Position numbers and translations under genes: made by a program | Sequence record: PZ445524.1 | DNA: 64,000 bases | Direction: 5' to 3' (one strand) | DNA from: a phage | In this document: one piece after another, positions 33,738-37,820 of the stretch | Numbering within the stretch: the first letter of the stretch is position 1 | Layout of the letters: every line of letters starts with the position of its first letter | Notes under the pieces: model-generated | Told to the model about the DNA's origin: nothing | Seen by the model: only the letters and a program-made list of their open reading frames with translations | Databases searched by the model: none

Positions 33738-33769
33738 GTATAGTACCACAGTATGCTTTGGTTGTAAAC
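33738..33769 (-). promoter_or_regulatory. early promoter for motA
   Basis: - strand GTTTAC, 18-nt spacer, TACTAT, then SD GGAG and motA ATG. Confidence 0.55.
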
Positions 33770-33790: not shown

Positions 33791-33822
33791 GAAATAAAAA
33801 AAGGGAGAGCCTCGGCTCTCCC
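33791..33822 (-). terminator. rho-independent terminator downstream of gene 52 and the 49-aa peptide
   Basis: - strand GGGAGAGCC-GA-GGCUCUCCC followed by a U-run. Confidence 0.75.
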
Positions 33823-33827
33823 TAAAA

Positions 33828-33977
33828 TTACTGCATGAATGTGATAACTATCATGATAACACGTTGAATTCCGAACGCAAGAAGACCTCCTGCTACGGCT
33901 GGAACAACACCTAACCCCGCCAGTAAAATGCTACCAGATACTAATGCAGCGCTTGTAATACCAATGAATGGACTCAT
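33828..33977 (-). CDS. small hydrophobic membrane peptide (49 aa)
   Basis: Hand-translated MSPFIGITSAALVSGSILLAGLGVVPAVAGG...; ATGA overlap with gene 52 stop. Confidence 0.5.
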   Translation of the reverse strand: MSPFIGITSAALVSGSILLAGLGVVPAVAGGLLAFGIQRVIMIVITFMQ

Positions 33978-35302
33978 TTGATTTCCTCTAAATCTTTGGT
34001 GTATTCTGTAACTACATCAGTAGTTTTCCAATATTCGTTTTCTTCTTTTTTAGCTTTAGCTTCTTCAGCAAGTTTCTTCGCTTCATCGGAAGTCATATGA
34101 AAAATATTCATTCCAACTAGTTTATCAACATAAGAAGAATACATATCGATTTTCGAAAGTTCTTCGGTCAGTTCTTTACGAGTTTTACCCTGTACAACGA
34201 TTTCACCTGAAATTACCTTCTTAATGAAATGTGCCTTGGCAAAGGCTAAACGAAAAGCTGACTCAGTTTCTTTAATTTTGTTATCAATTCGTTTTTGGAC
34301 ATAAGTTTTACGAACTTCAACGAAGTCTTTAATTAAATCGACTACGTTATCGTAAACTTGTAGTTTTCCTTTCTCATTAATAACCGTAATATTCTGGGAA
34401 CGACGCTCAATCAACCCGAAGTCTTTCATAATTTTTGCATGGCGTTCTTCTTCGTTATCGCTCAAAGAGTATTCTTTGCGGAATTTAACTTTGAAGCCAA
34501 AGCCATGCTCACCACAAGCATCATCCCATGTAATGAAGCCTTTATCTTCAAGCGGGTCTAAGATTTTACTCACATAAGTTTCACGATCATACTTATACGG
34601 AATCTCAGTGATATGCATTTGAGTTCGTGAAGTAAACTTGTATGTTCCACGAATTTCATATTGCCCATCAATTTCAACGACTTCACCACGAAATTCTGGG
34701 AATTCTACTTTCGGTTTAGTTACTTTCTTTCCTTGAAGAGCTTGCAGTACAGCTTTCTTAACAGAAGAAACACTATGAGGAAGAATGTAAGTTGCATAAC
34801 CAGTTGCAATACCGGAAACGCCATTAAGAAGAACAGTAGGAATAACAGGCAAATAGAAAGCAGGCGGAATGTGTTCTTTATCTTGATGTACCGGAGCATA
34901 TTCAGTATCTTTATATACGTTATAGAAATTTTTACTTACACGAGCAAAAATATAACGACTTGCTGCTGCCTTTTGGACAGTACGAGAACCAAAGTTTCCT
35001 TGACCATCTAATAGAGGAAAGTTATTATTCCAAGTATTAGCCATCAAAGCGCCCGCATCTTGTGCAGAGTTTTCGCCATGATGATATCCAAGGTCCGCTA
35101 CACCACCTGCGATAGAAGCGAGTTTGTGAAACTTATCTTTATTTCCTCGTGCCAAATCAAGAGCTCGAGCAATAACAAATCGTTGAACTGGCTTAAATCC
35201 ATCAATCATATTTGGAATGGCACGATTTTCAACCGTGTACATAGCATAAGCCAATGCTTCATTATCAATGATACTTTTTAAATCGCGATTATTCAGTTGC
35301 AT
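33974..35302 (-). CDS. 52: DNA topoisomerase II medium subunit gp52 (GyrA-like)
   Basis: 442 aa; motif FKPVQRF. Confidence 0.92.
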   Translation of the reverse strand: MQLNNRDLKSIIDNEALAYAMYTVENRAIPNMIDGFKPVQRFVIARALDLARGNKDKFHKLASIAGGVADLGYHHGENSAQDAGALMANTWNNNFPLLDGQGNFGSRTVQKAAASRYIFARVSKNFYNVYKDTEYAPVHQDKEHIPPAFYLPVIPTVLLNGVSGIATGYATYILPHSVSSVKKAVLQALQGKKVTKPKVEFPEFRGEVVEIDGQYEIRGTYKFTSRTQMHITEIPYKYDRETYVSKILDPLEDKGFITWDDACGEHGFGFKVKFRKEYSLSDNEEERHAKIMKDFGLIERRSQNITVINEKGKLQVYDNVVDLIKDFVEVRKTYVQKRIDNKIKETESAFRLAFAKAHFIKKVISGEIVVQGKTRKELTEELSKIDMYSSYVDKLVGMNIFHMTSDEAKKLAEEAKAKKEENEYWKTTDVVTEYTKDLEEIK

Positions 35303-35306
35303 AAAT

Positions 35307-35447
35307 TTACCATACTAGTGAATGTAGTGCCATAATAACATCAGAAATGAAAAGCACGACTTGAATTAATCCGAACATTACTCCATAATATAGTGCTACC
35401 AATAAAGTAGCAAGGGCTAATGAATAGCCCAAGATTTTCTTAATCAT
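35307..35447 (-). CDS. small hydrophobic membrane peptide (46 aa)
   Basis: Hand-translated MIKKILGYSLALATLLVALYYGVMFGLIQVV...; below ORF-track size cutoff. Confidence 0.45.
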   Translation of the reverse strand: MIKKILGYSLALATLLVALYYGVMFGLIQVVLFISDVIMALHSLVW

Positions 35448-35598
35448 TAGTAGATAACAACACAAATGTTAAATATGCACACATACCCTGGGCTAAAGCT
35501 TGTGAAAACACACTGCTAGCATCGATACAGATAGTTAAAACACATGCTACTATCCAACAAATAAATGAAATAACTCCTAATAATTTTGCGATATTCAT
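35440..35598 (-). CDS. small hydrophobic membrane peptide (52 aa)
   Basis: ATG at 35596-35598 with GAGGAG SD; paralogous to the adjacent 51-aa peptide. Confidence 0.5.
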   Translation of the reverse strand: MNIAKLLGVISFICWIVACVLTICIDASSVFSQALAQGMCAYLTFVLLSTND

Positions 35599-35608
35599 AA
35601 TATTCTCC

Positions 35609-35764
35609 TCAACTATTTTTAGAACCAATGTACGCGAATAATGATAAAATCGCTAATACGCCCTGAGCTGATGCTTGCAAAAATACTGAAGTTTCTCCAG
35701 TTATTACTGTTCCGATGCATAAAAAGAACCAACAGAAAAAGGCTATACCGTGAACAAATTTCAT
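35609..35764 (-). CDS. small hydrophobic membrane peptide (51 aa), ac-like by position
   Basis: Hand-translated MKFVHGIAFFCWFFLCIGTVITGETSVFLQASAQGVLAILSLFAYIGSKNS; sits next to stp. Confidence 0.5.
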   Translation of the reverse strand: MKFVHGIAFFCWFFLCIGTVITGETSVFLQASAQGVLAILSLFAYIGSKNS

Positions 35765-35771
35765 ATTTTCC

Positions 35772-35852
35772 TCACTGGCGTCCGAAGACGCCTTTGGTTT
35801 TAAGATTGTTACGATAGAACTGCATCACATGTTCGTTATGGAAATTACTCAT
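35772..35852 (-). CDS. stp: Stp peptide (26 aa)
   Basis: Hand-translated [26 protein letters not shown], matching my recollection of T4 Stp; ATG overlaps ndd stop. Confidence 0.8.
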
Positions 35853-36310
35853 TAATATGCCTGCAAAACAAATTTAAAGTTATCAGCCAACATACGGTTC
35901 ATTTCTTCAAGTGTTTGATACTCAGAATGATGATTACGAGTAAACGCCAAAGCTAACTGACCTTTTCCAAATCCCGTCGTCAGAGGTTTCATCTTAGAAG
36001 CAGGCAGATAAAACACTGTGTATGGAACATTGTTATTTGCAATAGTACGCGCAAGTTGAGACCGGCGTTGACGAATATGACTTAAAACCGCACTGAATCC
36101 TTGCTTAGAACGTTGATTACCTACATAAAATCGTGCAGACACACATGGATTACTAAATGGACGACCATCTAATTTACTTACTAAAAAGTAAAATCCAGGT
36201 TTAGATAAAATATCTTTATGCGGAGTTCCTAAAAACCATTCACCACCCTTGATTGTACCAATAACAGTTGCGCCTGCATTGTTCAGATCAGTAACAGTCA
36301 TGTATTTCAT
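35852..36310 (-). CDS. ndd: nucleoid disruption protein Ndd
   Basis: 152 aa from ATG 36308-36310 with GAGGAAA SD. Confidence 0.75.
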
Positions 36311-36370
36311 ATTAATTTCCTCTAAATTATTTTCTACTCCAAGGCCGCATGAATACACACGGCCATTAAA

Positions 36371-36586
36371 TTAATCGTCGCAGTCGACGCTCAATTCCCA
36401 AAACTCTTCTACAGTATAAGTTTCAGTATCATTTTCAATACAGAAACGTTCATTACTGTTATTTGCTAAAGTAGCATTAACTGTCGGTTTCTCGCTAGTG
36501 CTCTTAAGAGGTGAAATACGAATTAACTGATCACCGTTATCTAAACAGAAAATTTCACCAACTTTTACATCTTTAAAACTTTTCAT
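36371..36586 (-). CDS. hypothetical acidic protein (71 aa)
   Basis: ATG with GAGGTG SD. Confidence 0.5.
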   Translation of the reverse strand: MKSFKDVKVGEIFCLDNGDQLIRISPLKSTSEKPTVNATLANNSNERFCIENDTETYTVEEFWELSVDCDD

Positions 36587-36701
36587 AATTCACCTCAAGG
36601 AGTATAAAATCCAAATGCAGTTGTTGACCATCCCATCCAATACGGAAAATTTGCACCAATGTAAAACATGAGAATATAAAACCAACCGCTCAGCAAATTC
36701 A

Positions 36702-36899
36702 TCATTTTACACCATTCCAAATTGTTTCAACCACGGATTTTAAACCATTTTGATGAATATCAATTCCGACTACCGCCATCAAATAAATTCCAACTACAAC
36801 TGAACCTAAGGCAAAAATCAGCATGAAAATGAATAAAGCCGGAAAAATATTATCGAAAAACCATTCAATAAATGTAAAAGCACTGCGTTTACGCTTCAT
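36702..36899 (-). CDS. small membrane protein (65 aa)
   Basis: Start moved to ATG 36897-36899 with GAGGAAAA SD; hydrophobic core. Confidence 0.45.
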   Translation of the reverse strand: MKRKRSAFTFIEWFFDNIFPALFIFMLIFALGSVVVGIYLMAVVGIDIHQNGLKSVVETIWNGVK

Positions 36900-36906
36900 A
36901 TTTTCC

Positions 36907-37020
36907 TCACATAAATCCAAAGTAAACGTTTAATACATCAATCATTAAAACGATTGGGAATATACTCAAAACTATTAGTATTATAACTACATTCCATATA
37001 GCTTTAATAATCTTTTTCAT
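36907..37020 (-). CDS. small membrane peptide (37 aa)
   Basis: ATG 37018-37020 with GGAGGAA SD; MKKIIKAIWNVVIILIVLSIF... Confidence 0.4.
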   Translation of the reverse strand: MKKIIKAIWNVVIILIVLSIFPIVLMIDVLNVYFGFM

Positions 37021-37262
37021 TTTCTGTTCCTCCGTAGTTGATAGGGTAATAGTACCACGGAAGAACAGTCTTGTAAACAACTTTTTAAAAATATTCGTAA
37101 TAAATGTGAATACCAACTACTACCGCTGAAACCTGTGCAACCCACCACGCACAAGCAATAAGTACAGAATTCAAAATTTTCATAATAACCTCATCACAAA
37201 AGTAAATGTTAAACAAATTAATGGAATACTAATTAACCAAACAAAACACCACCATAATGAAC

Positions 37263-37526
37263 TCATAGTTCAATCTCAGCGATTTTCATTTCATTACTAT
37301 TAATAGCCGCTTTAAGACTATCTGAAAGAATTACATTCCAATGGTCATTCATATGACCACTAACTAAGCGTGTAATTTCTTCAGGAGTTGAAAAATAAGG
37401 CTGATCAGACTCCCAATGCGATAGTCCCAAGCGAGTATAAATCATACCTTCATCATCGCTAGAATATTCAACTGACACAAACTCATCAGTTATTTTATGT
37501 TTAGCGTAATAAAATTTAAATTTCAT
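37263..37526 (-). CDS. hypothetical protein (87 aa)
   Basis: ATG 37524-37526. Confidence 0.5.
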   Translation of the reverse strand: MKFKFYYAKHKITDEFVSVEYSSDDEGMIYTRLGLSHWESDQPYFSTPEEITRLVSGHMNDHWNVILSDSLKAAINSNEMKIAEIEL

Positions 37527-37531
37527 TTTAC

Positions 37532-37738
37532 TCAATAATCCGCTAAAAGATCAACGATTGCATCACGAAGACACTTATTCGCAATACGTTTAAGAGCAAT
37601 TTCAGTTTCTGGAGCATTTTGAATAATCATTGAATTCAATTCAGCCTCAGCAAACTGAAGTTCTTTAACTAATTCAGCTTTATATTTTCCTTGCCCTTTC
37701 TTAGCTTTTGCTCGTTTTAATTCAGCTGTAGTAAACAT
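37532..37738 (-). CDS. hypothetical protein (68 aa)
   Basis: ATG 37736-37738 with GGAG SD; early promoter upstream. Confidence 0.5.
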   Translation of the reverse strand: MFTTAELKRAKAKKGQGKYKAELVKELQFAEAELNSMIIQNAPETEIALKRIANKCLRDAIVDLLADY

Positions 37739-37820
37739 TTTATTCTCCAAATCCGTATCAGTTGATAGTTGTATATTACCACAGTCCTTGTGGTATGTAA
37801 ACCGTTTTGGGAAAAAATTT

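Follow-up and report, generated by a model that had tools for sequence, protein, structure and literature searches.

The 64,000-nucleotide stretch of phage DNA analysed here (sequence record PZ445524.1; hereafter the window) carries the gene 52-to-denB section of a T4-like genome, in which we found nine genes for hydrophobic peptides of 28–65 amino acids (aa): motA.1, 52.1, two ac genes, ndd.2, ndd.2a, ndd.4, ndd.5 and ndd.6 (Table 1). We compared 3.9 kb of this section with phage records; 900 match and 487 span at least 80% of it. The closest DNA match is Escherichia phage ECML-134 (98.2% identity), and the top matches are members of Tequatrovirus (T4-like). Read against the annotations of Aplg8, RB14, ECML-134 and T4, the minus-strand order is denB, two small non-T4 open reading frames (ORFs), ndd.6, ndd.5, ndd.4, ndd.2a, ndd.2, ndd.1, ndd and stp, followed by the second ac-type gene, ac, 52.1, gene 52, motA.1, a terminator and motA. 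The series agrees with that of T4 in order, orientation, overlaps and lengths, and the sequences are near-identical; a passage in the description of the T4 genome counts the cluster among three clusters of predicted membrane proteins (Miller et al., 2003). The window phage differs from T4 in that an additional ac gene, of the RB51 type, separates stp from ac, that ndd.2a is intact (split by a 1-nt deletion in the T4 reference), and that two more non-hydrophobic ORFs lie between ndd.6 and denB.

A preliminary description of this DNA had listed seven ORFs as very small hydrophobic peptide genes. All seven are present on the minus strand and co-oriented (49, 46, 52, 51, 37, 32 and 28 aa), the last of them with a range that starts at 37180 once the stop codon is counted, and not at 37183 as given. 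The upper size of 65 aa in that description is that of ndd.2a, for which, as for ndd.2 and stp, it gave no coordinates. That the peptides are mostly single or double transmembrane helices was borne out by the grand average of hydropathy (GRAVY), by Kyte-Doolittle windows and, for the second Ac, by AlphaFold2. GRAVY ranges from 0.49 to 1.88 across the nine peptides, and the best 19-residue Kyte-Doolittle window scores 2.15–3.06 in eight of the nine (1.17 in ndd.2).

Table 1. Genes and signals of the gene 52-to-denB section (positions in the window).
Feature	Position	Strand	Description
motA.1	33828..33977	-	49 aa, Gly/Ala/Ser-rich, hydrophobic; start ATG overlaps the gene 52 stop
52.1	35307..35447	-	46 aa from ATG; start overlaps the ac stop by 8 nt
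ac (T4 type)	35440..35598	-	52-aa two-helix membrane peptide, acridine-sensitivity determinant
second ac gene (RB51/RB32/wV7 type)	35609..35764	-	51 aa; loop TGETSVF is the family consensus
ndd.2	36595..36705	-	36 aa, one hydrophobic helix and an aromatic tail; overlaps the ndd.2a stop (ATGA)
ndd.2a (T4 ndd.3 + ndd.2a, intact)	36702..36899	-	65 aa: basic N-terminus, transmembrane segment, C-terminal motif
ndd.4	36907..37020	-	37 aa, single helix; strong GGAGG Shine-Dalgarno site
ndd.5	37085..37183	-	32 aa, single helix; phrog_5011, E = 4e-26
ndd.6	37180..37266	-	28 aa, single helix; ATGA coupling on both sides
stp	35772..35852	-	26 aa, non-hydrophobic activator of host PrrC anticodon nuclease; inside the series, not a membrane peptide
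gene 52	33974..35302	-	topoisomerase II medium subunit; context gene, anchor of the locus comparison
early-type promoter	33740..33768	-	same type as the two promoters below
early-type promoter	37049..37077	-	between ndd.5 and ndd.4; TTTACA, 17 nt, TACTAT, TG before it
early-type promoter	37773..37801	-	downstream of denB
intrinsic terminator	33802..33823	-	just past motA.1; 9-bp G+C-rich stem, then a T-run

In the PHROG search every peptide matches one family over its full length (E = 3e-17 to 1e-30), while Pfam matches above the gathering cutoff were obtained for three: 52.1 with DUF7396 (81.9 bits, cutoff 27, positions 1-46 of 46; also phrog_3595), ndd.2a with DUF7248 (68.9 bits, cutoff 27; also phrog_2401) and stp with PF08133 (E = 2e-21), the last being identical to T4 Stp. 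By synteny and full-length profile matches, motA.1, ndd.2, ndd.4, ndd.5 and ndd.6 fit the T4 families phrog_3487, 4135, 3098, 5011 and 8851. MotA.1 shares 47 of its 49 residues with the T4 protein (phrog_3487, E = 1e-30) and keeps its frame in 12 distinct DNA versions. The 52.1 peptide, probably a two-helix hairpin, has the conserved motif LYYGV..G.I..VLFISDVI......SL.W. Further motifs mark ndd.2 (Y.G.N.pYW.G; E = 3e-29, 15 distinct DNA versions), ndd.4 (KK.lKaIWn...vl.iFp...miDv; E = 5e-21, 17 distinct versions), ndd.6 (sSk.WC.iW...IP.iC; E = 3e-17, 18 distinct versions from several genera) and the C-terminus of ndd.2a (GLKSVVETIWNG). The latter gene is intact in the window phage and in RB14. 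In the T4 reference (NC_000866 166432-166628) a 1-nt deletion lies just past ATGAA at its start, so that T4 is annotated with two fragments, ndd.3 and ndd.2a; the deletion may be a true laboratory-strain frameshift or an old sequencing error. Judged from these sequence comparisons, the identity of the genes is already known: they are orthologues of named T4 genes, plus one ac-type copy without a T4 counterpart.

The genes are packed with stop/start overlaps behind early-type promoters, with one terminator after motA.1. ATGA overlaps join 52/motA.1 (33974-33977), ndd.2a/ndd.2 (36702-36705), ndd.6/ndd.5 (37180-37183) and the upstream ORF/ndd.6 (37263-37266); ac and 52.1 overlap by 8 nt (ATGATTAA), and the ndd/stp junction is TAATG (1-nt overlap). 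GAGG-type Shine-Dalgarno sites precede motA.1, ac, the second ac, ndd.2a, ndd.4 and ndd.5. The genes without a good site are exactly 52.1, ndd.2 and ndd.6, those whose starts overlap the preceding stop. The claim of good ribosome-binding sites and ATGA-type coupling thus stands, with four such overlaps and GAGG-type sites ahead of six genes. The three early-type promoters share GTTTACA-N17-GTGGTAnTAT and have similar transcribed leaders (…CTATCAACT…), which implies at least three early transcription starts in the 5-kb stretch. The promoter between ndd.5 and ndd.4 aligns with the one upstream of motA, and the promoter downstream of denB probably starts a unit with the two non-T4 ORFs, ndd.6 and ndd.5. 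The terminator (folding energy -17.6 kcal/mol, z = -4.3) is annotated as such in Aplg8. Within the last codons of stp we also observed a tetraloop hairpin, GGCGUC-UUCG-GACGCC (35777-35792, minus strand, -12.2 kcal/mol), immediately 5' of the Shine-Dalgarno site that serves the following gene and conserved in T4 and RB51, which may be an mRNA-stability or processing element.

That these frames code for peptides is indicated by several observations. Of the stretches 36595-37266 and 35307-35764, 74% and 98%, respectively, are taken up by hydrophobic ATG-initiated ORFs with a minimum length of 28 aa, compared with a mean coverage of 9% in 500 dinucleotide-preserving shuffles, none of which reached the observed value. 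We then searched six-frame translations of 41 loci around gene 52 taken from IMG/VR (gp52 identity 47–100%). The true family members in these loci all lie on the gene 52 strand and in the same order: 52.1 occurs in 31 loci (down to 60% gp52 identity), motA.1 in 13, Ac, ndd.4 and ndd.6 in about 20 each, and ndd.2 and ndd.2a in 17–19. The frames are thus kept across diverged loci, the conservation among related phages on which the preliminary description had made its claim depend. The median pairwise ratio of nonsynonymous to synonymous substitution rates (dN/dS) is 0.08 for motA.1, 0.29 for 52.1, 0.46 for the Ac family, 0.21 for ndd.2, 0.32 for ndd.2a, 0.20 for ndd.4 and 0.42 for ndd.6, values that point to purifying selection on the reading frames in related phages. 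The families also keep polar and aromatic motifs of their own beyond hydrophobicity, e.g., W...T.....SVF.Q..AQG in Ac. As for ndd.5, it is confined to Tequatrovirus (496 phage records, 90–100% DNA identity). Its variable codons in six further records are silent in frame in seven of 11 cases, against one or two of 10–11 in the other two frames, and single-base indels near the gene fall just outside the ORF. In T4, RNA-seq places motA.1, 52.1, ac, stp and ndd.2 to ndd.6 among the early transcripts (PMC9697503, Table S2).

The likeness to ac-type effectors suggested in the preliminary description turned out to be closer than claimed, as 35440-35598 is ac itself and 35609-35764 is its other allelic type. 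The 52-aa peptide equals T4 Ac with one Thr inserted near the C-terminus and is otherwise identical; this insertion is common and phenotypically silent, PP01 having the same insertion and keeping the phenotype (bioRxiv 10.1101/2025.06.30.662393). The paralogy proposed for the 51- and 52-aa peptides was confirmed by BLASTP (E = 6e-10; 43% identity across 40 residues), and each matches phrog_2501 over its full length (E = 4e-25 for the 52-aa and 5e-26 for the 51-aa peptide). They share with T4 Ac the two-helix hairpin and the pattern W...T.....SVF.Q..AQG, the copy at 35440-35598 being the orthologue and that at 35609-35764 the paralogue. The latter differs in its loop, TGETSVF (common in the wider family, in other genera), where T4 has CIDASSVF. 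Since the RB51-type loop is found in other genera, the T4 type looks derived. Members of the Ac family were found between stp (or ndd) and 52.1, on the same strand, with about 47–52 aa. In T2, the counterpart of T4 Ac is the 'pr' gene.

The 51-aa type is absent from T4 and RB14, and it is the sole ac gene in RB51, RB68, wV7, pEC-M719 and others; in phages with this type alone the gene occupies the exact T4 ac position. Judged by position and family, Tequatrovirus has two allelic types of Ac. Both occur in tandem in about 51 records, including ECML-134, Aplg8, PST and the window phage, and in about eight of these the second gene is without any feature. The two copies are preceded by the same junction of stop and Shine-Dalgarno site, TGAGGA(A/G)AAT...ATG, which fits an origin of the tandem by unequal recombination between phages carrying different types. 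The recent study of Ac missed the two-type tandem because only high-identity BLASTN was used.

AlphaFold2, run on the family alignment, predicts for the second Ac a helix (2-22), a loop (23-26) and a second helix (27-50) with a mean predicted local distance difference test score of 76, a helical hairpin that agrees with the Kyte-Doolittle profile; the published ESMfold model of T4 Ac is likewise hairpin-like, with two helices and a loop (bioRxiv 10.1101/2025.06.30.662393). A word-indexed search for Ac relatives gave seven clusters, and when 1.84 billion representative proteins were searched exhaustively with the profile, six small relatives (about 50 aa) and two spurious long ones came up; on this evidence the family looks confined to T4-like phages. 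Two of the relatives, P0004 and P0007, carry PF26944 in precomputed annotation, a model that our local Pfam copy did not report. Another, the 50-aa P0009, combines a TGES loop (RB51 type) with a C-terminal CAYLTF (T4 type), features that mark it as an apparent intermediate or recombinant between the two types.

Every Tevenvirinae genus sampled has between one and four small two-helix ORFs in the ndd-to-52 interval, and the families change by genus, the pattern of an accessory, host-adaptive region. In other genera we observed a 57-aa family ending ...ERLCKMCGVYE directly after ndd and a 52/53-aa family starting MIILVFIELI. Loci with other two-helix families include L046 (4448-4863), L011 (3912-4622), L013 (4342-4807), L025 (2943-3116) and L030 (3256-3794) of the comparison set. 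Downstream of gene 52, other genera have different small hydrophobic ORFs in place of motA.1, and L011 and L036 carry duplicated stp and 52.1 fragments.

Function is documented for Ac. Deletion of ac or the single change G38R makes T4 acriflavine-resistant, and in E. coli expression of ac increases acriflavine killing by 3 logs and also sensitises the cells to ampicillin (bioRxiv 10.1101/2025.06.30.662393). According to the published phenotype, the infected or expressing cell accumulates acridines. As the mechanism, the authors propose that Ac, once in the membrane, blocks efflux through the AcrAB-TolC pump (bioRxiv 10.1101/2025.06.30.662393), which a 2026 PNAS paper restates as an assumption (PMC13250531). 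Acridine sensitivity has been shown for T4 Ac and its Thr-inserted variant. The membrane-effector role that the preliminary description attached to the whole series is documented for Ac only. Its second comparison, with superinfection exclusion, was not upheld: no Pfam family of this kind (Imm, Sp) was found for any peptide at E ≤ 1. Imm and Sp resemble the present peptides as early, small, membrane-associated phage proteins; they are larger (83 and 97 aa) and encoded elsewhere in the genome. As for the region as a whole, the T4 deletion sa-delta-9 (from 52.1 to denB) is viable, with a growth rate roughly half that of normal phage, and it loses the post-infection stimulation of phosphatidylglycerol synthesis (PMC6071114). 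Our literature search gave no functional data for motA.1, 52.1 and ndd.2 to ndd.6, and two phage functional-genomics papers do not mention them in their main text.

The series consists of known, conserved T4 genes, and we consider it likely that their products are early inner-membrane peptides which bind particular host membrane proteins. The peptides would be made in the first minutes of infection and would enter the inner membrane of the host, each as one helix or as a helical hairpin. In members of the Ac family, Lys at both ends and the acidic TGE loop suggest cytoplasmic termini and a periplasmic loop. Because each family keeps a specific polar/aromatic motif, binding of particular host membrane proteins is the most likely mode of action, instead of damage to the membrane in bulk; Ac would act on drug efflux. 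A functional analogy to small regulators of the AcrZ/MgrB type is plausible. AcrZ binds AcrB and MgrB binds PhoQ, and the peptides described here are alike in size (about 30–50 aa), in having one or two transmembrane helices and in the proposed binding of a large membrane protein. The pump bound by AcrZ is also the proposed target of Ac. Where the single-helix AcrZ tunes that pump, the two-helix Ac would inhibit it, its binding being a hypothesis.

Several points weigh against this interpretation. Among the nine hydrophobic peptides a phenotype is on record for T4-type Ac alone, and binding of host proteins is an extrapolation for the eight others, RB51-type Ac included. AcrAB-TolC as the target of Ac is itself a hypothesis, whose authors gave no binding measurement and no efflux measurement in a pump-deleted host. 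In searches of Pfam, NCBIfam and PDB the peptides resembled neither AcrZ nor any family of small cellular proteins: the Ac profile has no match at E ≤ 10 among all PDB chains, which include AcrB-AcrZ complexes, PDB sequence searches with Ndd.2a and 52.1 gave nothing meaningful, and scans of Pfam, NCBIfam and PADLOC at E ≤ 1 returned two DUFs, the Stp family and noise. The dN/dS values of 0.4–0.5 in the Ac family and ndd.6 are fairly relaxed. In the T4 time-course proteome the small hydrophobic peptides were undetected (protein class NA), whereas Ndd and Ndd.1 were detected (PMC9697503, Table S2), an absence tempered by the fact that small hydrophobic peptides are poor targets for tryptic mass spectrometry. 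The literature search found no ribosome-profiling study of T4, and what supports translation is genetics (ac, stp) and the evolutionary signal. The same proteome absence would be expected if the ORFs were chance open frames in untranslated, T-rich leader or spacer RNA; the coding strand is 40–41% T, which favours hydrophobic codons, and AT-rich phage DNA yields many spurious ORFs of 20–40 aa. This idea is nevertheless already contradicted by the present data and we regard it as scarcely conceivable, given the shuffles, none of which attains the observed coverage, frames kept across genera with dN/dS well below 1, the substitutions in ndd.5 that are silent in the annotated frame, the indels lying outside the frames, and the genetic phenotypes of ac and stp.

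Other explanations accept the peptides and assign them different roles. They might counteract host defences, or be what membrane-bound host or prophage defence systems sense, with an arms race maintaining their variability. Stp, encoded next to them, is a factor of this very kind, as it interacts with the Prr restriction/anticodon-nuclease system; families turn over in the interval, which also has allelic types and a tandem duplication, and laboratory strains of the phage do without the genes. We think this unlikely, in that the literature search gave no experimental link and PADLOC models were unmatched, that library being one of defence and not of anti-defence proteins. That the peptides are toxins akin to type I toxins or holins and damage the inner membrane, depolarising or permeabilising it and adding to host shut-off, with raised acridine influx behind the Ac phenotype, appears quite improbable. 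The peptides are like Hok, TisB and the phage T holin in being short and hydrophobic and would likewise act in the inner membrane, and the resemblance to Hok and TisB extends over both size and hydrophobicity. Increased permeability was put forward by Silver in early work, many small T4 genes of the early class kill the host when cloned (PMC6071114), and the effect of Ac on ampicillin killing would fit as well. Against damage of this kind, the motifs kept by each family are specific rather than generically hydrophobic, G38R alone abolishes the effect of Ac, and toxin and holin families in Pfam and NCBIfam are unmatched at E ≤ 1. Infected cells must, moreover, stay energised for about 25 minutes, and the genes of the series sit in early polycistronic mRNA with Shine-Dalgarno sites or stop/start overlaps, a difference from type I toxins and holins. 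Finally, the cluster could remodel the host membrane, through lipid synthesis or membrane sites for phage assembly, instead of acting on individual host proteins. The loss of phosphatidylglycerol stimulation in sa-delta-9 (which lacks 52.1, ac, stp, ndd, ndd.1 to ndd.6 and denB) speaks for this, as does the membrane location that the authors give for several products of the region (PMC6071114). The deletion, however, also removes ndd and denB, so its effect is not tied to any small peptide, and growth of the phage continues at roughly half speed; a family content that varies by genus is more in keeping with accessory, host-specific roles than with a core function in the membrane. We hold this last explanation to be very doubtful.

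Apart from these genes, the section contains two non-hydrophobic ORFs between ndd.6 and denB, one of 87 aa (37263-37526, minus strand, phrog_2390) and one of 68 aa (37532-37738, minus strand, phrog_4535); their names in the RB14 annotation are RB14ncORF269c and RB32ORF266c, and T4 has a short spacer there. In the whole window, the minus strand has 35 hydrophobic small ATG ORFs (28–70 aa) and the plus strand 14, an excess which suggests more small membrane-protein genes elsewhere in the window. Further frames picked up by iterated ndd.4/ndd.6 hidden Markov models, such as a 79-aa 'MGCTGFSG...' and a 37-aa 'MVFTFITN...' ORF, were rejected as genes because they are out of frame over ndd.5, span the promoter and are broken in several phages. 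The 37-aa ORF is annotated in ECML-134 (L003 3703-3816; 37021-37127 in the window), where this spurious ORF runs across the ndd.5/ndd.4 early promoter, and some records fuse its frame to ndd.4 (79–80 aa, phrog_28140).

The expectation that such peptides are under-annotated was accurate in part. All except the extra ac are named T4 genes, and all have PHROG families; their annotation is patchy, the closest RefSeq record, that of ECML-134 (NC_025449), being without 52.1, stp, ndd.4, ndd.5 and ndd.6. Small-ORF calling is thus inconsistent in T4-like records, with five genes missed in this record and one false gene called. The small hydrophobic ORFs are real, conserved genes, but known ones, and the original observation is correct yet ordinary. 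What is new, to a modest degree, is that Ac has two types which occur in tandem, that ndd.2a/ndd.3 is split in the T4 reference and that ECML-134 is mis-annotated; otherwise the stretch confirms textbook T4 gene content. If the link between Ac and AcrAB-TolC is real, the two Ac types offer a ready-made comparison for mapping the interaction. It is also possible, if rather speculative, that the cluster is a modular arsenal in which every peptide has an inhibitory target of its own among the machines of the host inner membrane, for example efflux pumps, transporters or sensor/defence proteins. Were this so, the Ac tandem would widen the range of pump variants or hosts disabled, and the T4-like phages would constitute a natural library of small-protein inhibitors in the style of AcrZ and MgrB, including efflux-pump blockers.

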